In this document: positions 18,937 through 30,604 of the stretch, piece by piece | Position numbering within the stretch: the first letter of the stretch is position 1 | Layout: the number at the start of each line of letters is the position of its first letter | IMG/VR virus record: IMGVR_UViG_3300045988_056832 | Strand: one strand, 5' to 3' | Length of the DNA stretch: 40,401 nt | Source: a virus | Notes under the pieces: generated by a model | What the model was told of the DNA's origin: nothing | Seen by the model: the letters and a program-made list of their open reading frames with translations, nothing else | Database searches by the model: none | Translations under genes and position numbers: made by a program

Positions 18937-19361
18937 GTACAGAATATCCATTCGCCGGCTTAACGAATAGTAACGCTTATCAAAGCGATGAGTTGCCGTT
19001 ATTTGTTGAATATGATTGGGATTTTGATAACAACTCATTTAAATTCACCGCTAATGGTAACCGAATAAAAGTAACTGGTGATGACGCCTTAAAAGTTTGG
19101 GTGTATAAAGCACTAATGACCGAACGCAATCAATATTTGGCATATTCTACTCGTTATGGTATTCAATTAAAGCCTTTTATAGGAAAGGTTATGAGTGTTA
19201 ATGAACGGTATAGTGAGCTTAGACGAGTTATCGTTGAATGTCTTATGGTTAACCCTTATATCAAGTCTATTGATAGCATTACATTCGACGAAAACGGCGA
19301 TAAGGTAGAATGTTCCGTTGAATTAACCACAGTATATGGAGGGCTTAATATTAATGTTTAA
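18933..19361 (+). CDS. XkdS-like (gpW/gp25-like) baseplate wedge protein
   Basis: DDALKVWVYKALMTERNQYLAYSTRYG motif. Gene order. Confidence 0.55.
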   Translation: MSTEYPFAGLTNSNAYQSDELPLFVEYDWDFDNNSFKFTANGNRIKVTGDDALKVWVYKALMTERNQYLAYSTRYGIQLKPFIGKVMSVNERYSELRRVIVECLMVNPYIKSIDSITFDENGDKVECSVELTTVYGGLNINV

Positions 19362-20388
19362 CATTCCAACTAGCGATGAAATATTAAAAGATTTACAGGA
19401 ACAATGTACATCGCCTTATAGTAAATTTGAGGGTACGTTTGAATATGATGTATTTTCATCTAATGCTATTGAGTTTATGAAAACTTATGTTGAATTAGGC
19501 GAATTGTACAAGGTCGCTTTTGGTGATACTGCATACGGCGACTTCTTAACTATGAGGGCTGCCGAAAGTGGTGTAATTAGAAAAGAGGCAACTAAGGCGA
19601 CTGGTTATGTTACTGTCAAAGGTAACGGAACTTTGCCAAAAGGCAGCCAATTTGCAACTCAAACCGGCATTTTATTCGAAACGCTTGAAACAGTACAAGT
19701 TAATAACTCAACAAAAGTTAAAGTGCAAGCTCTTGAAGGTGGCATAGGCGGTAACGTTACAGCGCAATCGGTAACGGTTATTCCAATGTCTATTCCTGGT
19801 ATTTTAAGTGTTAATAATACAGAGCCTATAGGTGATGGTTTTAACGCAGAAAACGACGAGGAATTAAGAACTCGTTATTTAAATCATGTTCGAACTCCTG
19901 GAACTAGCGGAAACGCAACCCACTATTATGAGTGGGCGATGTCTGTTGGTGGTGTTGGTGGTGCCAAAGTGCTTCCAGTATGGAACGGCGCCGGTACTGT
20001 TAAAGTAATCATTGTGAATAGCGAGTTTAGTCCAGCTTCACAAGAAATTATTAACAAGGTAACTAATTATATTGAAACTGTTCGCCCTATGGGTGCGGTG
20101 GTAACGGTAACAACTGTTACACCTAAGACAATCAATATTGCAGTTAAACCGGAAGGTAATTTTAATCAATCGGTATTTACTGAATTAGTTAAAGCGTACC
20201 TAATCGACATTGAACGACAAAACATCAAAAACTCAACTTTATTAAAAGTTGCTTATTCTAAAATCGGCAGTCTTGTGTTAGATGCCGGAGCGACCGATTA
20301 TACAAATTTAACGATTAATAATGCTACTAAATCAATCGAATTAGCTGTTGATGATTTAGCGATATTAGGCGAGGTGAATATCTTATGA
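19354..20388 (+). CDS. Baseplate J-like protein (XkdT-like)
   Basis: About 345 aa. ATG 19354 is preceded by GGAGGG. Sequence LTMRAAESGVIRKEATKATGYVTV... Confidence 0.8.
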   Translation: MFNIPTSDEILKDLQEQCTSPYSKFEGTFEYDVFSSNAIEFMKTYVELGELYKVAFGDTAYGDFLTMRAAESGVIRKEATKATGYVTVKGNGTLPKGSQFATQTGILFETLETVQVNNSTKVKVQALEGGIGGNVTAQSVTVIPMSIPGILSVNNTEPIGDGFNAENDEELRTRYLNHVRTPGTSGNATHYYEWAMSVGGVGGAKVLPVWNGAGTVKVIIVNSEFSPASQEIINKVTNYIETVRPMGAVVTVTTVTPKTINIAVKPEGNFNQSVFTELVKAYLIDIERQNIKNSTLLKVAYSKIGSLVLDAGATDYTNLTINNATKSIELAVDDLAILGEVNIL

Positions 20389-21014
20389 TTTTTAACCTTT
20401 TAAGGACGTATAAAGTCGATGTACTAAGATACTTGCCTAAGTACCTATCAAAAGATAATACCTTTAAAGGAACGCAAGATTCGTTAAGTGAAGAACACGA
20501 AAAGCAACGCTTGTTAATTATCGATATATGCAAGCAGTTGTTTGTTGAAACAGCGACTTGGGGTCTTGATGATTGGGAGCGAGTATACGGACTTGAAAAC
20601 AATCGCAATTTATCAATCGATGATAGGCGAGCTTATTTATTAATTAAAATTCAAGGCTCGCAAACAATCACCGAAAGTAAATTACAAGAGTTTATTAACC
20701 TTGTATATCCTCCTGGTAGTGCGGTAGTTAAGGAAAATACTGGACCTAATAGTTTTAGCGTTCTTCTTGATACAGCCGACGCTTTAAACGAGATACGAAA
20801 CGTTATCGAGGTATATAAGCCGGCACATTTAACGTATGCTATAGCACATGAATTTAACGCTAGAGGACCGATAGCTGTTGTTGGTGCGGTAACTAATACC
20901 GAACGTATTTACATCAAGCAAGAAAAATCTGATAAATCAATTACAGCACGAGGAATTTATGCTTGCCCTGTTGGTGCAGTCGCTATCCGAAGCAATATTA
21001 ATTTACACTATTAA
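20385..21014 (+). CDS. XkdU/YmfQ-like tail protein (gpI-like)
   Basis: LRYLPKYLSKD...ATWGLDDWERVYGL signature. Confidence 0.65.
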   Translation: MIFNLLRTYKVDVLRYLPKYLSKDNTFKGTQDSLSEEHEKQRLLIIDICKQLFVETATWGLDDWERVYGLENNRNLSIDDRRAYLLIKIQGSQTITESKLQEFINLVYPPGSAVVKENTGPNSFSVLLDTADALNEIRNVIEVYKPAHLTYAIAHEFNARGPIAVVGAVTNTERIYIKQEKSDKSITARGIYACPVGAVAIRSNINLHY

Positions 21015-21025
21015 GGAGTTGAACT

Positions 21026-22015
21026 ATGAGTAATTACAATAAAATTATTCCGACTTTAGCCGGTAGCAATCTATTGGTTGAGTCGGTTAAATCTAAAAAG
21101 CCACTCATCTTTACTCGTATCGCATTAGGTGATGGCACATTAACCGAAAGCGAAAGTATTGAAGGCTTAACTGCATTAAAGCACCCTATGGCGCAGAACT
21201 CTGTACAAGCAATTAACAGTCGAGTGAACGGCGAAATTGACGTTGTAGCGACTATTTCTAATGCAAATATTACAAGCGGTTTTTATGCTCGTGAATTAGG
21301 TGTGTTTGCTAAAGTCGGTGATACTGGTACGGAAAAGCTATTCGCTTATACGAATGCTGGTGCACAAGCAAGCTATACTCCAGCTGGTACATCCTTAGAT
21401 GAAAAGTTGATTACTGTAACCTTTTATATTGGTAATGATGTTAATGTAAAAATCAACCTTAACAGTCAACTATACATCACGCAAGCTGCATTAGATGCAC
21501 ATAATTCGGCTACAAATGCACATCAAGACGCTTTTAATAAAAAACTAGATATTAGTTCGAACCAGTACGCTAAATTTATTGCTAAACACAATCAAGGGCT
21601 ACAAGTAACAAAAGGCGATAATTCACAAGAAATTATTAACTTTATTGCAAATAACTACAACGATGGAGATACTAATAAAGTACTTAATCTAAGTACGCTT
21701 AAAAGTTTATTAGGACAAGGTGCTATCGTGGCATCTAAACTTGATGCAAATGCTGGTTTCGTAAAGTTTGCTAATGGTTTCACTATCCAGTGGGGAGTGG
21801 GTGGTCAAGATAACGTAACTAAGACAGAGGTACGATTTCCTATCAAATTTACAACTTTATTCATGGCGAATGCTATTGATGCGTACTGGTCAGGTTCTGA
21901 CACGCCTAGGTATTTCGCTAACTCCGTGTCAGAGAGCAACACAACTAAGGCCGTATTTTCGGCAAGCGATAGATATGCTGCTTCTTATTACTGGTTTGCA
22001 CTAGGAATAATCTAA
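21026..22015 (+). CDS. Tail fibre protein. The C-terminal 72 residues after QWG form the currently expressed receptor-binding tip.
   Basis: N-terminal IIPTLAGSNLL...FTRIALGDG fibre anchor. C-terminal IQWG...RFPIKF...YYWFALGII tip. Confidence 0.8.
   Translation: MSNYNKIIPTLAGSNLLVESVKSKKPLIFTRIALGDGTLTESESIEGLTALKHPMAQNSVQAINSRVNGEIDVVATISNANITSGFYARELGVFAKVGDTGTEKLFAYTNAGAQASYTPAGTSLDEKLITVTFYIGNDVNVKINLNSQLYITQAALDAHNSATNAHQDAFNKKLDISSNQYAKFIAKHNQGLQVTKGDNSQEIINFIANNYNDGDTNKVLNLSTLKSLLGQGAIVASKLDANAGFVKFANGFTIQWGVGGQDNVTKTEVRFPIKFTTLFMANAIDAYWSGSDTPRYFANSVSESNTTKAVFSASDRYAASYYWFALGII
21782..21796. repeat. Left inverted repeat ACTatCCAGTGGGGA inside the tail-fibre gene
   Basis: The 10-nt core CCAGTGGGGA (21787..21796) is the exact reverse complement of 22293..22302. 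Confidence 0.8.
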
Positions 22016-22061
22016 TTCCCTAGGATAATGAACATAATCTGATCACCGACACATTTGGATA

Positions 22062-22304
22062 TTAAGCCTTCCCTACGGCCATCCAAACAAAACTACCTGT
22101 GTCCGCTCTGGTGGTTAAGAATCGGATGGTGTTTCTATTAGCTTGAGAGAACCCACTATTCCAAGTAATAAAGCATTGTGCACCAGAAGTTTCAACACTT
22201 ACAGAGTCATCGGTAGCTAATGCTATTAGTACAGTGCTGCTAATCGGTAGAGAAATATCCTTATAGTACTTATTAGCATCAAACCAAGTTAATCCCCACT
22301 GGGG
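22062..22304 (-). other. Silent alternative tail-fibre tip cassette (no start codon, no RBS)
   Basis: The minus-strand frame reads PQWGLTWFDANKYYKDISLPISSTVLIALATDDSVSVETSGAQCFITWNSGFSQANRNTIRFLTTRADTGSFVWMAVGKA*. It shares QWG, the P-I-x-x-T core and the W-x-A-x-G ending with the expressed tip. Confidence 0.7.
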
Positions 22305-22307
22305 AGT
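22293..22307. repeat. Right inverted repeat TCCCCACTGGggAGT (core within the palindrome-armed TCCCC-ACT-GGGGA)
   Basis: Reverse complement of the left repeat. It touches the recombinase stop codon. Confidence 0.8.
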
Positions 22308-23158
22308 TATTTTAATAATTCTATGGCTTTTCGTAGCTCACGAATAGTCTTATGTGTGTATACTCTGGTGGTAATATCGCCTTGTTTGTGGCCTAGTAAA
22401 GAACGTAATGTGTTGGGCGGTGCTACCGAATCAAGTAAACTTGCAAATGTATGACGAGTATCGTGGATAGTATGCTTACAATTTAACTGTTTCATAATAT
22501 CCTTGAAATTCTTATGGAATGTTGTGTAACTGATGGTAAATAGATATGCTTCGGTGCAGGTGTATACTTGCTCTATTAGTGGCATGATGCGGTGATGTAA
22601 TGGAATGATACGACCTTCACCAGCTTTCGTTTTAGCGTGTCTTACGATGAGGTATGACGATCGCCTATGGATGTCTTGCTTACGTAAATTAAGAAGCTCA
22701 CCTATGCGGAGGCCTGTGTATAGCAGTATTAAAATCATATGGGAATAAGAAGTATCTATTGACCATAATTTATTAATTTGTTGACGAGTAAATACTTTTC
22801 TCTGAATCGTTGGTACATTGGGGCCTAGGTTCAAGTGTAGGGTGTAATTCGTGATAGCGTAATCCTTGATGATTGCGTAATTAAATAATTGATTAAGTAA
22901 CGTACGGACTTTCTTACATGATGAGTAGGAAAGTCCTTTTACGTGCATGGAATTAATCACGTTCTGAAGGTGCTGAAAATGAATATTCGTGATAGGCATA
23001 TCCGATATGTTGGATATGTGTTTAAAAGCAATGTGATAAGACTTAACAGCGCTATCAGAAATAGACTGAGAGTGAATAGGCAGCCACTCGTTAAATAGTT
23101 GCCTTAATGTAATGGTATTGCGTTGTCTACGGCTTAATATAATAGCGTAACGGCGCAT
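22307..23158 (-). CDS. Tyrosine recombinase without an arm-binding domain (putative tail-fibre invertase)
   Basis: Catalytic set GLRIGEL (R), AKTKAG (K), HDTRHTF (HxxR), LLGHK (H), RVYTH (Y). RBS GGAGGTG. Antisense to the late operon. Confidence 0.9.
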   Translation of the reverse strand: MRRYAIILSRRQRNTITLRQLFNEWLPIHSQSISDSAVKSYHIAFKHISNISDMPITNIHFQHLQNVINSMHVKGLSYSSCKKVRTLLNQLFNYAIIKDYAITNYTLHLNLGPNVPTIQRKVFTRQQINKLWSIDTSYSHMILILLYTGLRIGELLNLRKQDIHRRSSYLIVRHAKTKAGEGRIIPLHHRIMPLIEQVYTCTEAYLFTISYTTFHKNFKDIMKQLNCKHTIHDTRHTFASLLDSVAPPNTLRSLLGHKQGDITTRVYTHKTIRELRKAIELLK

Positions 23159-23184: not shown

Positions 23185-23577
23185 ATGAATCAATATGTAT
23201 TTATTTTAAATGAACAAGGCGAGCGTATTACATCTTTTGTTAATAATATGATTAGCAAAGATGAATTACTAGATCATGCTAAACAAGAATGGCCAGATGC
23301 AGCGGATTATATTTACTCTGCAGACGGCGATAGTATGCTAGATGAATTTATGGCTGGCAAGTTTTATGTAAATGGTGAGTTTGTAATTCCGCAACCAAAA
23401 GAACCAACTAAGGCTGAACAAATTGCAGAAATTAAAAATTACTATGATAAACGATTTGATGCCCTTGATAAAGCGGTATTGCGTAGACGATTGTCTAATG
23501 CAGATATTAGTGATTTGCAAGCACAATATAAAACTTTACAAGCTGAAATGGTTGCTAAAATTAAGGCGGTGAAATAA
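23185..23577 (+). CDS. Hypothetical phage protein (in the position of XkdW)
   Basis: 130-aa ORF in the position after the fibre gene. Confidence 0.5.
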   Translation: MNQYVFILNEQGERITSFVNNMISKDELLDHAKQEWPDAADYIYSADGDSMLDEFMAGKFYVNGEFVIPQPKEPTKAEQIAEIKNYYDKRFDALDKAVLRRRLSNADISDLQAQYKTLQAEMVAKIKAVK

Positions 23578-23703: not shown

Positions 23704-25150
<1,447 letters not shown>

Positions 25151-25492: not shown

Positions 25493-25838
25493 AAGATCAT
25501 ATCAATCTGTAAGGGTGGCTAATATCCACCCTACAGGTGTATTAGCGACGAGGGTACTAGTATTAGTTATGCTAGTACCTATTTTATTGGTGATTACTCA
25601 ATATATCATGGCTTTTATTAGTGGTTATGTATCAGACGAAGCCAATAAGATAATTAGCGTTGGTATTAATATCATAGATCATATCTTTATTCCGTCTGTG
25701 TTAACTGCATTAGTAGGGTTCTTGGCGTTATGGGTTGATAAGGATGGAAACGGTGTTCCAGATAAGCTAGAGGAACCTCCTAAAATACCGATTAATACCG
25801 TAGTAAACGAAAGGAGTGATTATAATGCACCTCGTTAG
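25458..25838 (+). CDS. Putative holin
   Basis: ATG preceded by AAGGAGGAG. Two hydrophobic segments, VLVLVMLVPILLVITQYIMAFI and IPSVLTALVGFLALWV. Confidence 0.5.
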   Translation: MNIPPNLINTVKRSYQSVRVANIHPTGVLATRVLVLVMLVPILLVITQYIMAFISGYVSDEANKIISVGINIIDHIFIPSVLTALVGFLALWVDKDGNGVPDKLEEPPKIPINTVVNERSDYNAPR

Positions 25839-26367
25839 TCTTACTGATTTAAATGACTATTGCCGTAGAGCTTTAAGTCAGATTAGTAAAATATATTTGC
25901 ATTGGACGGCAGGTAGGTACAATCAACAATTTGATGACTACCACATTAACATTGATAGGGATGGCAACATTTACATTGATGGTGAATTAACAGACCATAA
26001 GAACCATACCTATATGCGCAATGGTTCTGCGGTAGGTATTGCTTTAGACTGTGCTTATGGGGCTCAATGGACTGATAATCTTGGTGAATATGCACCTACA
26101 GATGCACAGATTGAAACTTTAGCGCAAGTGGTAGCGTTGCTGTGTGTTGACCTTGGCATTCCGTGTGATATTAGACATGTTCTCACCCATGCCGAGGCCG
26201 CCGATAACATGGACGGCTACTATGCTCACGAACCGTATGGACCTACTACAACATGTGAACGATGGGACTTATGGGCTATACGTGAGGGTGATGTTCCTGG
26301 TTCTGGTGGCGATGTAATTCGTGGCAAAGCTAAATATTATGCTCAACAATGGGGAAGTAATATATAG
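25825..26367 (+). CDS. Endolysin, N-acetylmuramoyl-L-alanine amidase (PGRP/Amidase_2-like), catalytic domain only
   Basis: IYLHWTAGRY...HINIDRDG...GIALDC...LTHAEAAD pattern. RBS AAGGAG 8 nt upstream. Confidence 0.7.
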   Translation: MHLVSLTDLNDYCRRALSQISKIYLHWTAGRYNQQFDDYHINIDRDGNIYIDGELTDHKNHTYMRNGSAVGIALDCAYGAQWTDNLGEYAPTDAQIETLAQVVALLCVDLGIPCDIRHVLTHAEAADNMDGYYAHEPYGPTTTCERWDLWAIREGDVPGSGGDVIRGKAKYYAQQWGSNI

Positions 26368-27226: not shown

Positions 27227-27272
27227 TTTGACATCATAAAGTCTTATGGGGTTTGACATCATTTTGACATCA
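27227..27272 (+). repeat. Three TTTGACATCA repeats (P' arm)
   Basis: Copies at 27227..27236, 27252..27261 and 27263..27272. The last overlaps the int stop codon. Confidence 0.6.
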
Positions 27273-28343
27273 GAAAATTTTAGCAATGCGTTCCACGATG
27301 TCATCTTCCATTTTAGGAGTGACGTGTGAATAGGTATCCATTGTTTCTTGAAACGAAGCATGGCCTAGGCGCTCTTGTATGGCTTTCATATTTGCCCCAT
27401 TTTCAATGAGAAGTGTGGCGTGGGTATGTCTTGTACCGTGCATAGTAAAAGTTGGCTTACCGATTAAATTGGCGTATTTCTTACATAACTTACTGACTTC
27501 ATCAGGGCAGCGAGGTGCACCTTTAATGCCAGGGAATACTAGATTATTATTAATCCAGTTCATTGTCTTAATTCTGCGTTTATCTATGACTGTTTTATGT
27601 TTTGCAAGTTCCTGAAGAGTTTCCGTATCAATGGCTATTATTCGTTTGGATGATGTAGTTTTAGTTGTATTTGATATAACTGCAGTTGATCCGATTTTGA
27701 GTGCTGTTTGTGAAATGGATATGGTCGATTTCTTAAAGTCGATATCAGACCATCTTAGGCCTAGCAATTCAGATCGCCGCATGCCGGTTGCAAATGCTAA
27801 TTTAAATAATGCATGGTGTTCGGAATTTGATATATTTGATAGGAAATTTTTAACTTCATCTGCAGACAACGTTACCATATGGCGTACTTTAACCTGTTTT
27901 GGCCTATCAAGGTTACGCATATAATTTTTTGGGATGATATCATCTTTTACTGCTTGTTCTAATATCGAGCTCAGTATCGTCATGGTGTATGATATAGTTC
28001 GAGAGGATAAACCATCCATAGATTCAAATACATATCTTAGTGTGTTTGGCTTGATTTCAGCCAACTTTACACCGCCGATCTTATCTCGAATATAGCGATT
28101 TATGATGCCTGTATAACTTTGATAGGTAGCTGGTGTTATGCTCTTTTCTTTTAGTTGCAACCAAATATTAATCCAGGTATTTAATGAGATGGTAGCATCG
28201 AAATTGGCGCACGATTGGTTAGCGTTTATATATTTCTCCATCGCTTCCGTAGCAGCTTTCTTTGTGCTGCCATAAAAGTATTTTCGCTTGCCATTTATCA
28301 CCTTTGACACTTGGTAGCGGCCATCGGGTCGTTTTTTAGCCAT
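27270..28343 (-). CDS. int: Phage integrase (tyrosine recombinase with an N-terminal arm-binding domain)
   Basis: MAKKRPDGRYQVSKVINGKRKYFYG arm domain, GMRRSELLGL, HGTRHTHATLL, LGHASFQETMDTYSH. The start is set at the ATG downstream of the terminator hairpin. Confidence 0.9.
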   Translation of the reverse strand: MAKKRPDGRYQVSKVINGKRKYFYGSTKKAATEAMEKYINANQSCANFDATISLNTWINIWLQLKEKSITPATYQSYTGIINRYIRDKIGGVKLAEIKPNTLRYVFESMDGLSSRTISYTMTILSSILEQAVKDDIIPKNYMRNLDRPKQVKVRHMVTLSADEVKNFLSNISNSEHHALFKLAFATGMRRSELLGLRWSDIDFKKSTISISQTALKIGSTAVISNTTKTTSSKRIIAIDTETLQELAKHKTVIDKRRIKTMNWINNNLVFPGIKGAPRCPDEVSKLCKKYANLIGKPTFTMHGTRHTHATLLIENGANMKAIQERLGHASFQETMDTYSHVTPKMEDDIVERIAKIF

Positions 28344-28370
28344 ATTTTTAATCCTTATAATAATTAATAA

Positions 28371-28411
28371 AAAGATGAGGCCTTGTTCCATAAGAACAAG
28401 GCCTCATCTTT
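28371..28411 (-). terminator. Strong intrinsic terminator between the MazF-fold gene and int
   Basis: 18-bp perfect stem AAAGATGAGGCCTTGTTC / GAACAAGGCCTCATCTTT with a 5-nt loop. T-rich on the minus strand. Confidence 0.75.
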
Positions 28412-28522: not shown

Positions 28523-29266
28523 TTACTTTATATCGTATAACTCTTTTATAACTGCTCGAATTTTATCAGTCACATGTTTATCTACTCGCATATTATAAAG
28601 TGCATCTTTATGATATCTAGGACTTTGTATGCGTATTTTACTTATAGTCCTTATTTGAGAAACAATGGCAACGGTGCCTGCATTTAACCGCGACACTTCT
28701 TTCATGATTATATCGTGCTTAGCAAGTAGGTCTTTGGCTTCAGCTAACTGTTTTTCAAAGCGTTTAACATCATTAGCCGTTAACGTCTTTTTGTCAGTAT
28801 TTTCGAATTCCTTTACATACTCTTCGCATTTGTCTAACATCTTTCCGGATCTATCCAGTAGAACTGTAAATAATTCTGTTCCCAAATAAACATCTGTTTT
28901 ATATAGTGTTTTTGGACTCTCTTTGCTTAACTTCAAAGACCTCAGAGGGACAACTGTGACTGTGCTGCTTTTAGAATTACTAGGTGCAAGTACTATCGCA
29001 TAATGAAGGCCCCCGAACTCAGATCCTATCCCAAAGCCCAAGTCTACTTTAACTATATCTCCAGGTTTAAATTGAGGAAAATACTTTGGATCAAAAGTTT
29101 CTTCTTGTTTTATATATCTTAAATAATTACGCAGCCAATAATAGAGCAGGGCAGCCTTGTGTTGATCTGAACCTAGTATATTTTTTAAAAACGCACTTAT
29201 GTTACTCGCAAGTTCCGTTATTTTCGACAATAAAGCCCCTTTGTTTTCCGGCTTTTTTAAATCCAT
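28523..29266 (-). CDS. MazF/PemK-fold protein with an N-terminal helical extension and a large internal coiled-coil insertion
   Basis: PGDIVKVDLGFGIGSEFGGLHYAIVLA, VTVVPLRS, GTVAIVSQIRTISKIRI. Start at MDLKKPENKG, with RBS AAGGAG 7 nt upstream. Confidence 0.7.
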   Translation of the reverse strand: MDLKKPENKGALLSKITELASNISAFLKNILGSDQHKAALLYYWLRNYLRYIKQEETFDPKYFPQFKPGDIVKVDLGFGIGSEFGGLHYAIVLAPSNSKSSTVTVVPLRSLKLSKESPKTLYKTDVYLGTELFTVLLDRSGKMLDKCEEYVKEFENTDKKTLTANDVKRFEKQLAEAKDLLAKHDIIMKEVSRLNAGTVAIVSQIRTISKIRIQSPRYHKDALYNMRVDKHVTDKIRAVIKELYDIK

Positions 29267-29342
29267 ACAAAAACTCCTTGTTGTACATTTTATATTTTCC
29301 TTTATTATAAAGCCCTTTGCCTCGTAGCAGGACAGGGGATTT

Positions 29343-29912
29343 TTATATCCCGAAAATCCCTCTAATGATGCTACGACTACGTTCGTGTTTAGCTTTACGC
29401 TCAGCTTCTTTTTGTTGTGCAATTCTTGCTTCCTGTTGTTCTTTTGCTAGTTGCTCTTTTTCTTCAGCACGTGCTTGTGCCTCTGCAGCTTGTTGCTTTT
29501 TGTAGTCTGCTAATTTAACGTCACGGCCGACTAGTCCCTTTACAGATGCAATAAGCGCTTCATCACCCATTCCTGGGGCAGCGACATGGTTTTGGCCGTT
29601 AAAATTATAGTTACTAATTATGGAATCAGATCCGCTTCGATATATGTTTCTATCAAATAAATCAACGGAATTATCAGAGAAATGAATTCTATAAGATAAA
29701 AGTTCTTGTGTTCCTAAAGTTCGTACCCATACGGCCCAAGCCCTAGCTGTGTCGGTAGAAGGGTCGTAGGACAATGTGTTTAAATCGACTTTCCCTGTGT
29801 AATCAGAATTTGAATAAAACCATTGCCAACGTGCGTCATTGAATTCTTTAGCACTAACCATCATTGTTACGCATAGTACAAATATTGTTGCTAATACTAA
29901 CCCTTTTTTCAT
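29343..29912 (-). CDS. Secreted or membrane-associated protein with a charged C-terminal coiled coil
   Basis: Signal peptide MKKGLVLATIFVLCVTMMVSA. C-terminal KKQQAAEAQARAEEKEQLAKEQQEARIAQQKEAERKAKHE. Confidence 0.65.
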   Translation of the reverse strand: MKKGLVLATIFVLCVTMMVSAKEFNDARWQWFYSNSDYTGKVDLNTLSYDPSTDTARAWAVWVRTLGTQELLSYRIHFSDNSVDLFDRNIYRSGSDSIISNYNFNGQNHVAAPGMGDEALIASVKGLVGRDVKLADYKKQQAAEAQARAEEKEQLAKEQQEARIAQQKEAERKAKHERSRSIIRGIFGI

Positions 29913-30217: not shown

Positions 30218-30604
30218 CTATTTATTTTTTAATTTTAATAGTTCTATATATTCAACTGCTTTCTCCATATCCTCCTTACTAATATCTTTTGCCGCAGAGA
30301 ATAGCATACGAGCACCTGGGCGTGTGCGCAAGTACTCAGCGAATTCAGCTGCTTCTTTATCTAGGTAATATTCCTCTTCGGTTTTATCTTGCCTTTCTAC
30401 TAATTCTGATTTTGGCACGTGAAAATAGTTTGCCATCATTTCAATTTTATCTATTCTTGGATATGTATTGCCTTTCAACCAATCTGTTAAAGTAGTGTAT
30501 TTAAACCCTAAATCAGCACATAGTTTATTTCTGTCTATTCCTCGGCTATCCATTAGCCTTTGGAGATTTTGCGCCATAATTTCCTTATTGCCTAAATCAC
30601 TCAT
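30218..30604 (-). CDS. XRE-family HTH repressor (CI-like)
   Basis: IMAQNLQRLMDSRGIDRNKLCADLGFKYTTLTDWLKGNTYPRIDKIEMMANYF. Divergent from the cro-like gene. Confidence 0.8.
   Translation of the reverse strand: MSDLGNKEIMAQNLQRLMDSRGIDRNKLCADLGFKYTTLTDWLKGNTYPRIDKIEMMANYFHVPKSELVERQDKTEEEYYLDKEAAEFAEYLRTRPGARMLFSAAKDISKEDMEKAVEYIELLKLKNK

Follow-up and report, generated by a model that had tools for sequence, protein, structure and literature searches.

A probable site-specific inversion switch in the tail-fibre gene of a contractile-tailed Veillonella prophage

The viral record IMGVR_UViG_3300045988_056832, whose whole stretch of 40,401 nucleotides is referred to as the window, is the genome of a temperate contractile-tailed phage, as follows from the presence of terminase, sheath and tape-measure genes. 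Very probably, the tail-fibre gene of this Veillonella prophage carries a site-specific DNA inversion switch, which takes the form of a shufflon with two cassettes. Inverted repeats bracket one expressed and one silent C-terminal tip, a gene for a tyrosine recombinase adjoins the right-hand repeat, and the bracketed segment occurs in both orientations among near-identical natural relatives. The elements of the locus, in window coordinates, are the following.

21026..22015, plus strand: tail-fibre gene in the present assembly, 329 amino acids, constant part followed by tip A (from the listing of open reading frames)
21026..21796, plus strand: constant part of the fibre, residues 1-257, ending in the Q-W-G codons
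21782..21796, plus strand: left recombination site within the fibre gene, ACTATCCAGTGGGGA, with CAG TGG GGA coding for Q255-W256-G257
21788..22015, plus strand: expressed tip cassette of family A, QWGVGGQDN...YYWFALGII, 75 codons and a stop
21797..22292, no strand: invertible segment, 496 bp between the repeats and 516 bp including them, with the two cassettes tail to tail
22016..22061, no strand: spacer of 46 bp between the convergent stop codons of the cassettes (from reading the sequence)
22062..22301, minus strand: silent tip cassette of family D, QWGLTWFDANKYY...VWMAVGKA, 79 codons and a stop at 22062..22064, startless
22293..22307 (read 22307..22293), minus strand: right recombination site ACTCCCCAGTGGGGA, its last base shared with the recombinase stop codon
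22307..23158, minus strand: tyrosine recombinase (putative DNA invertase), 283 amino acids, antisense within the tail module

Natural orientations and permuted cassette arrays

IMG/VR was scanned twice, with the fibre and with the recombinase as queries, yielding 160 loci. In each of them, a tblastn survey placed the recombinase, the constant part and the two tips. In locus L082, positions 21787..22302 of the window align in inverted orientation at 98.3% identity while the flanks remain collinear, and L087 displays the same arrangement at 95%. The inverted and the collinear alignments of L082 overlap on exactly ten bases at either end (21787..21796 and 22293..22302), indicating that the breakpoints lie within the repeat CCAGTGGGGA. 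Two contigs of IMG dataset 3300045988, L082 and L083, share 99.8% identity over ~ 7.7 kb, and their sole difference is the inversion of these 516 bp. The same two states are found in a second background, where L090, L091 and L093 express tip A and L161 expresses tip D on flanks that are 99.7-99.8% identical. L161 is a Veillonella parvula locus, as is L162, which carries the same pair of A and D in the opposite state, with A expressed.

An earlier note on this DNA, made from the letters alone, had proposed a two-state inversion about 21797..22292 that would fuse fibre residues 1-257 in frame to the silent tip. The opposite state is indeed present in L082, L087 and L161, in all of which the D tip forms the expressed fibre C-terminus. 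A protein search with the predicted fusion also retrieved P0001, which ends in exactly such a fusion: its C-terminal ~ 100 residues are identical to the constant junction followed by the silent tip of the window. Hence, the silent cassette serves elsewhere as a working fibre tip.

When the DNA that separates the constant part from the recombinase was compared among 75 distinct loci, each proved to hold two, three or four cassettes. The cassettes form ten families, A-J, of 74-81 residues, nearly all beginning with QWG and finishing in a W/Y-x-x-A/V-x-G motif; family A is represented by 44 distinct variants in the related loci. The array of the window reads A> D<. On flanks at least 99.7% identical, arrays of {A, D, E, G} read E>A<D<G< in L149 and G>D>A>E< in L160, and, on such flanks too, G>D>E>A< in L150, L158 and L159 and G>E>A<D< in L155. 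Each of these orders can be reached from another through one inversion between oppositely oriented sites. Because near-identical flanks carry permuted cassette orders, the family is a shufflon, and the window is its minimal, two-cassette form. The interpretation given in the earlier note is therefore supported overall, and two additions have to be made to it: the recombinase is of the tyrosine type, not a serine invertase of the Gin/Cin type, and the two states of the window belong to a family that reaches four cassettes.

Seven IMG/VR contigs (L014, L057, L084, L101, L115, L129 and L153) end 0-50 nt from a site, be it the one at the QWG junction or the one beside the stop codon of the invertase. 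Such ends fit an assembler meeting both orientations in one sample, and may be taken as an indirect hint of inversion within a single population.

When one genome per species was scanned with the recombinase, the locus was found only in Veillonella (V. parvula, V. dispar and metagenome-assembled genomes of Veillonella). V. parvula UTDB1-3 (NZ_CP019721) has it at ~ 1,095,005-1,101,853, with tip A in the expressed and tip D in the silent position. Members of this genus are Firmicutes (Negativicutes) with an outer membrane and lipopolysaccharide (LPS), and are abundant commensals of the mouth and gut.

Recombination sites, cassettes and predicted tip fold

The 10-bp core CCAGTGGGGA is located at 21787..21796, where it is read as Q-W-G, and recurs at 22293..22302 as its exact reverse complement. 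Both positions are those described in the earlier note, which had also claimed an extended repeat and a palindrome-armed right copy. The former is borne out by the arms ACTATCCAGTGGGGA and ACTCCCCAGTGGGGA, equal at 13/15 positions, and the latter by the 13-bp near-palindrome TCCCCACTGGGGA on the plus strand of the right site (22293..22305). Taken alone, the 10-mer is weak: with at most one mismatch, it has 3 matches against 0.82 expected, a count reached in 4/100 shuffles, and numerous inverted repeats of equal length occur within the same 2.4 kb. In contrast, the 15-nt pattern ACTNNCCAGTGGGGA has exactly 2 occurrences, which are the two sites (0.02 expected; 0/100 shuffles reach 2). The significance of the sites is therefore derived from the statistics of the 15-mer together with the comparative data, and not from the 10-mer alone.

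All 75 distinct related loci carry the site at the left, in-fibre position, and every cassette in them begins CCAGTGGG[G/T]A; the right site adjoins the recombinase stop codon at the same place in the related loci. Oriented by cassette, the consensus of the site is T.ACT[A/C][T/C]CCAGTGGG[G/T]A. Although it was no criterion for selecting sites, the T at position -3 is invariant in 168/168 distinct sites. The core itself, TCCCCA-G-TGGGGA, is nearly palindromic around an asymmetric central base pair. On the fibre strand, the right site TCCCCACTGGGGA followed by GTTATTTTAA (22293..22315, plus strand) scores as a small terminator-like hairpin, which might also end the fibre transcript ahead of the antisense invertase gene.

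Entered at 22304, the minus-strand frame PQWGLTWFDANKYY...VWMAVGKA stays open for 80 codons up to its stop at 22064..22062. Neither ATG, GTG nor TTG is found among its residues upstream of QWG (ATKSHRIIKIT), and the listing of open reading frames contains none of at least 40 amino acids at the silent cassette. This startless frame with Q-W-G in register and the stop at 22062..22064, as well as tip lengths of 72 (expressed) and 76 (silent) residues after QWG, had been anticipated in the earlier note and hold exactly. To judge from a BLASTP alignment over their full length (23% identity, E = 0.003), the likeness between the A and D tips is real but low. The silent frame was also considered as an independent small gene and rejected, since it has no start codon in the window; the short open reading frames that databases place on such cassettes (P0012, P0017) start at fortuitous upstream ATGs. 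A terminator scan detected no terminator-like hairpin in the 46-bp spacer between the cassettes, and a promoter scan (8 promoter-like sites against 15 expected) is uninformative on invertase transcription.

Pfam matches of the fibre gene comprise an N-terminal Phage_tail_fib (tail-collar) domain and a Gp53-like_C domain (PF21882) at residues 247-327, and PHROGs assign the product to tail fibre families. The expressed tip scores 37.8 bits against Gp53-like_C, above the cut-off of 24.9. Joined to the constant part, the silent tip can be aligned with positions 1-83 of the 84 of this domain at 15.3 bits (E = 0.03), which is below threshold. Several of the proteins retrieved in the search with the predicted fusion, such as P0008 with a tip of family B, carry PF21882, and family B is the cassette family closest to family D.

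To compare the tips at the level of structure, as the earlier note had suggested, AlphaFold2 models were built for P0001 (D tip) and for the C-terminus of the window's own fibre (A tip), from alignments of 40-41 sequences. The strand order is alike in both models, and the predicted local distance difference test (pLDDT) score reaches 80-90 in the core of either tip. The model of the A tip matches the R2 pyocin fibre 6ct8 (E = 9e-6) and AP22 gp53 4mtm, and that of P0001 matches 6ct8 (E = 1.4e-5), 6cl6 and 4mtm with a probability of 1.00. The top structures common to the two are the R2-type pyocin fibre (6ct8/6cl6), AP22 gp53 (4mtm) and the R1 pyocin fibre (6cxb). Both tips are thus predicted to share one fold, that of the gp53/R-pyocin fibre tip. 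QWG sits within a beta-strand of the model and the Pfam domain begins ~ 10 residues before it, indicating that the crossover splits the Gp53-like_C tip domain. As modelled, the exchange would keep the first strands of the domain constant and replace the remaining ~ 75 residues.

The recombinase, competing explanations and neighboring genes

The 283-amino-acid recombinase matches PF00589 at E = 4e-21 and the core-binding domain Phage_int_SAM_3 in Pfam. It is composed of a SAM-like core-binding domain and a catalytic domain, without an arm-binding N-terminal extension. The catalytic residues are R151, K176 or K178, H232, R235, H257 and Y267, and the R, H-x-x-R, H and Y motifs are covered by alignment to the XerA-type structures 4a8e and 5hxy. 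Matches to NCBIfam are Xer-like and fall far below the curated cut-offs, with no match to an Rci-specific family. In the window, the stop codon of the gene touches the right site. A second tyrosine recombinase is encoded elsewhere in the window.

27270..28391: lysogeny integrase, 373 amino acids, PF00589, in the lysogeny module

This integrase gene is placed after an amidase gene (25816..26367) and before a helix-turn-helix repressor gene (30218..30604), with lysis genes nearby. The two enzymes are 25% identical. The short recombinase is smaller by ~ 90 amino acids and aligns from integrase residue 67 on, with ~ 65-90 N-terminal residues fewer. As the 373-amino-acid integrase occupies the lysogeny module, the short recombinase is dispensable for integration, and it is placed to act on the fibre. 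Among the loci with enough downstream sequence, an inverted site is present in 72/72 with the recombinase and in none of the 28 fibre loci without it. The earlier note had named the absence of repeat and cassette from all recombinase-bearing relatives as a ground for refutation; both are present in all 72 of these loci and missing from all 28 of the others, and the note is not refuted on this ground. Sequence features of this kind point to the 283-amino-acid recombinase as the putative catalyst of the inversion.

A tblastn search of 50,697 GenBank phage records with the invertase gave lysogeny integrases as best matches, at no more than 36% identity; examples are those of the Fusobacterium phages JD-Fnp2 and phiHugo and of the Butyrivibrio phage Idris, and no Bifidobacterium record is among the matches listed. 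The matches in phiHugo and Idris lie mid-genome and were considered as tail-module invertases. This was rejected because they adjoin lysis and repressor genes; the two enzymes are ordinary lysogeny integrases and not analogues.

We propose that the tyrosine recombinase would synapse the two oppositely oriented 15-bp sites ACTnnCCAGTGGGGA, and that strand cutting and exchange within the shared CCAGTGGGGA core would invert the intervening segment, the exact cleavage positions presumably lying within that core. Inversion would free the 75-residue tip A and join the startless 79-residue tip D to residue 257 in frame, after which the displaced tip A would be parked beside the recombinase. The exchanged ~ 75 residues would constitute the distal, receptor-contacting part of the Gp53-like C-terminal domain, and the virions set free by a lysogen population would have one or the other of two receptor specificities. 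From the modelled fold and by analogy, the two tips may confer different host ranges. Judging from fibre tips of the R-pyocin and gp53 types, surface polysaccharide or LPS variants of the outer-membrane-bearing host probably serve as receptors, the link to LPS being suggested by the fold of the LPS-binding R-pyocin fibres. Inversion is presumably still under way in this very genome.

Several observations weigh against the proposed switch. The shared core is just 10 bp, which is short for a site of a tyrosine recombinase, and recombinase-binding arms are not obvious other than T.ACT on one side. The natural variants that were compared are near-identical (99.6-99.9%) and not identical, and the case for the recombinase as catalyst is built from position, co-occurrence and intact motifs. 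The silent tip alone stays below every Pfam threshold, with a spurious sub-threshold match to Fve as its only hit. The AlphaFold2 models are moderate, with a mean pLDDT of 69 for P0001 (D) and 70 for the A tip, and represent monomers, unlike the native fibre tip, which is probably a trimer.

The alternative that survives best, though we consider it improbable, is that of a frozen relic: the descendant of an active shufflon would no longer invert here, the silent cassette would be dead cargo and the fibre would be fixed with tip A. The two cassettes of the window, against up to four in relatives, could reflect deletion between direct sites, and tip A is the expressed one in most assemblies (e.g. 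9 A>D< against 2 D>A<). However, both sites match the family consensus perfectly, the open reading frame of the recombinase is full length and keeps all catalytic residues, and the silent cassette has an uninterrupted frame with 100% identity to a tip that is expressed elsewhere. The two-cassette A/D array is moreover present in both states in two different phage backgrounds.

Less probable still is an origin of the variants in general homologous recombination, or in the swapping of modules among co-infecting phages, with another role for the neighboring recombinase. The fibre modules are indeed mosaic, as the N-terminal shaft of the window is 93% identical to that of L001 and 44-45% to those of L082/L083, and its cassettes and recombinase are 98-100% identical to L082/L083. 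Yet the repeat in which the breakpoints lie measures 10 bp, too little for efficient exchange of the RecA type, and flanks of 99.6-99.9% identity surround loci in which only the order and orientation of cassettes varies. Inversions between oppositely oriented copies of one conserved site explain all permutations, and the sites are confined to recombinase-bearing loci (72/72 against 0/28). The least credible alternative, namely that the 283-amino-acid enzyme is an integrase, an excisionase-type or a dimer-resolution (Xer-like) enzyme and the adjoining inverted repeat incidental, could draw on the integrases among its best GenBank phage matches (36% identity at most) and on the Xer-like, though far sub-threshold, NCBIfam matches, but a canonical 373-amino-acid integrase already occupies 27270..28391 in the lysogeny module, the recombinase lies antisense in the tail module with its stop touching the right site in all related loci, and its presence predicts the cassette array perfectly.

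The surroundings of the inversion switch contain further genes of the tail and lysogeny modules. Upstream of the fibre gene, Pfam identifies the Mu-type baseplate genes Baseplate_J (19336..20388) and Gp48 (20385..21014). Downstream of the switch, a second fibre-like gene (24050..25150, plus strand) codes for 366 amino acids with collagen G-x-y repeats and repeated 'FRYSDFTxEQLxALxGPKGD' units (Pfam Collagen; PHROG tail fibre families). Given this gene, the phage may carry two kinds of fibre, of which one alone is switchable. A 130-amino-acid open reading frame (23185..23577, plus strand) lies directly past the invertase and outside the invertible segment; its sole match is phrog_32639, of unknown function, and its position hints at a possible tip-independent fibre assembly factor. 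The open reading frame at 28523..29422 (minus strand) has a PemK/MazF toxin domain (E = 3e-8) and adjoins the lysogeny integrase, and may be a prophage-borne toxin-antitoxin or defence gene.

Relation to known switches, portability and meaning

The closest published system, with the same architecture, is the Rin shufflon of Bifidobacterium breve and Bifidobacterium longum prophages, in which an armless tyrosine invertase stands beside variable receptor-binding cassettes (Mavrich et al. 2018; PMC6109161). It comprises a constant N-terminal gene, 11-bp rix sites TTCCCTAACCC and a separate integrase, and the receptor-binding proteins of the bifidophages have been described as TP901-1-like or 1358-like (PMC6109161). 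A Rin-type shufflon has likewise been reported in Eggerthella lenta clade 1 prophages (PMC8778435). The Veillonella locus is likened to Rin by this architecture and not by orthology of the invertases. In both, an armless phage tyrosine invertase distinct from the lysogeny integrase flanks an array of short variable C-terminal cassettes on one side and a constant N-terminal gene flanks it on the other, each cassette opens with a short asymmetric crossover repeat of ~ 10-11 bp, and alternative orders were recognized from near-identical prophages.

The two systems differ in several respects. Whereas the hosts of Rin are Actinobacteria, that of the present locus is a diderm Firmicute of the Negativicutes, and its phage has a contractile tail with a Mu-type baseplate (sheath, Baseplate_J, Gp48) and tips predicted to adopt a gp53/R-pyocin-like fold. 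The Veillonella site CCAGTGGGGA, with ACTnnCCAGTGGGGA as its 15-bp form, does not match the rix sequence TTCCCTAACCC; it lies in frame inside a domain, where it codes for Q-W-G, and the window holds just two cassettes.

Inversion of tail-fibre genes is classical in Mu (Gin, G segment), P1 (Cin, C segment), e14 (Pin) and p15B (Min). Gin, Cin, Pin and Min are serine invertases, and the segments that they invert include a chaperone gene of the U/U' type. Such serine-invertase switches join a constant fibre N-terminus to alternative C-termini and thereby alter host specificity, Min being a multi-segment shufflon (PMC6109161). The Veillonella locus resembles them in that inversion in the fibre region swaps C-termini on a constant N-terminus. 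In contrast, its sole recombinase is of the PF00589 tyrosine type, its 496 bp are taken up by a 46-bp spacer and two cassettes, 75 and 79 codons long, without room for a chaperone gene, and its sites bear no resemblance to gix or cix.

In the shufflon of R64/IncI plasmids, the tyrosine recombinase Rci acts on 19-bp sfx sites to exchange PilV tips, and segments invert singly or grouped. There too, the C-terminal tip of an adhesin is swapped on a constant N-terminus, and direct sites do not entail obligatory deletion. Veillonella relatives with three or four cassettes share with this system the tyrosine recombinase and the short asymmetric sites. The target is, however, a phage tail fibre (Phage_tail_fib and Gp53-like_C) in a baseplate/fibre module instead of the PilV of a conjugative pilus, and the conserved core consists of 10 bp plus T.ACT instead of a 19-bp sfx site. 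In the multi-cassette relatives L158, L159, L150 and L160 (e.g. G> D> E> A<), several sites are direct and the intervening cassettes are kept. This raises the same question as Rci and Rin, namely how deletion is avoided. The foot of the R2 pyocin fibre (6ct8, 6cl6) and AP22 gp53 (4mtm), which have the fold predicted for both tips of the window, are fixed fibres with no inversion switch known and are 18-23% identical to these tips.

Our literature search found no described shufflon or inversion in Veillonella, which does not prove that none exists elsewhere. A blastn search of the locus against the 50,697 GenBank phage records gave no match, meaning that no phage deposited there is related at the DNA level. 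The Veillonella switch is real and apparently undescribed in this genus, and it is an example of the known tyrosine-invertase receptor-binding shufflon and not a new principle.

The related loci also offer a view of how the switch is distributed among fibre backbones. Loci free of the invertase have one fixed tip and no silent cassette, and in some (L013, L064) this tip belongs to type B or D. The existence of 28 such fibre loci (L013, L064 and 26 others) indicates that the switch module was gained or lost repeatedly. Compared over 21026..23158 with L001/L109 and with L082/L083, the locus of the window is mosaic. Since its shaft is closest to L001 (array A>C<F<) and its cassettes and invertase to L082/L083, the invertase-plus-cassette module has moved between fibre backbones. 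Across these backbones, the identity of the fibre N-terminus ranges from 31% to 93%, and the invertases are 87-98% identical. Fibres whose shafts are only 31-45% identical still agree almost completely in the 30 residues before QWG, and this conserved junction of ~ 30 residues, LLGQGAIVASKLDANAGFVKFANGFTIQWG, appears from its sequence to be the point at which the module is exchanged or grafted.

We tentatively suggest, while regarding it as plausible and not quite probable, that invertase and cassette array together make up a self-contained module for host range, portable by horizontal transfer, which originated independently of Rin and was grafted onto differing shafts. If this is the case, a site coded in a beta-strand of the tip domain would allow a partial-domain swap without any cassette-specific chaperone, and the phages of this diderm Firmicute would possess a compact, natural plug-in device for changing receptors.

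The locus also has practical aspects. At least ten interchangeable tip families with an in-frame Q-W-G splice point provide a catalogue for engineering anti-Veillonella phages or tailocins, and the compact invertase with its pair of 15-bp sites is a candidate genetic switch. For the assembly and annotation of metagenomes it carries a warning, as contigs break at the sites and silent cassettes are called small hypothetical proteins. To our knowledge, very few Veillonella phages have been studied, and we know of nothing on their receptors. The present findings extend the Rin-type mechanism, earlier reported in prophages of Actinobacteria, to contractile-tailed phages of the Negativicutes. Several genomes and hundreds of IMG/VR contigs make up the large group of Veillonella prophages that would hedge their host range by means of a tyrosine-recombinase shufflon.

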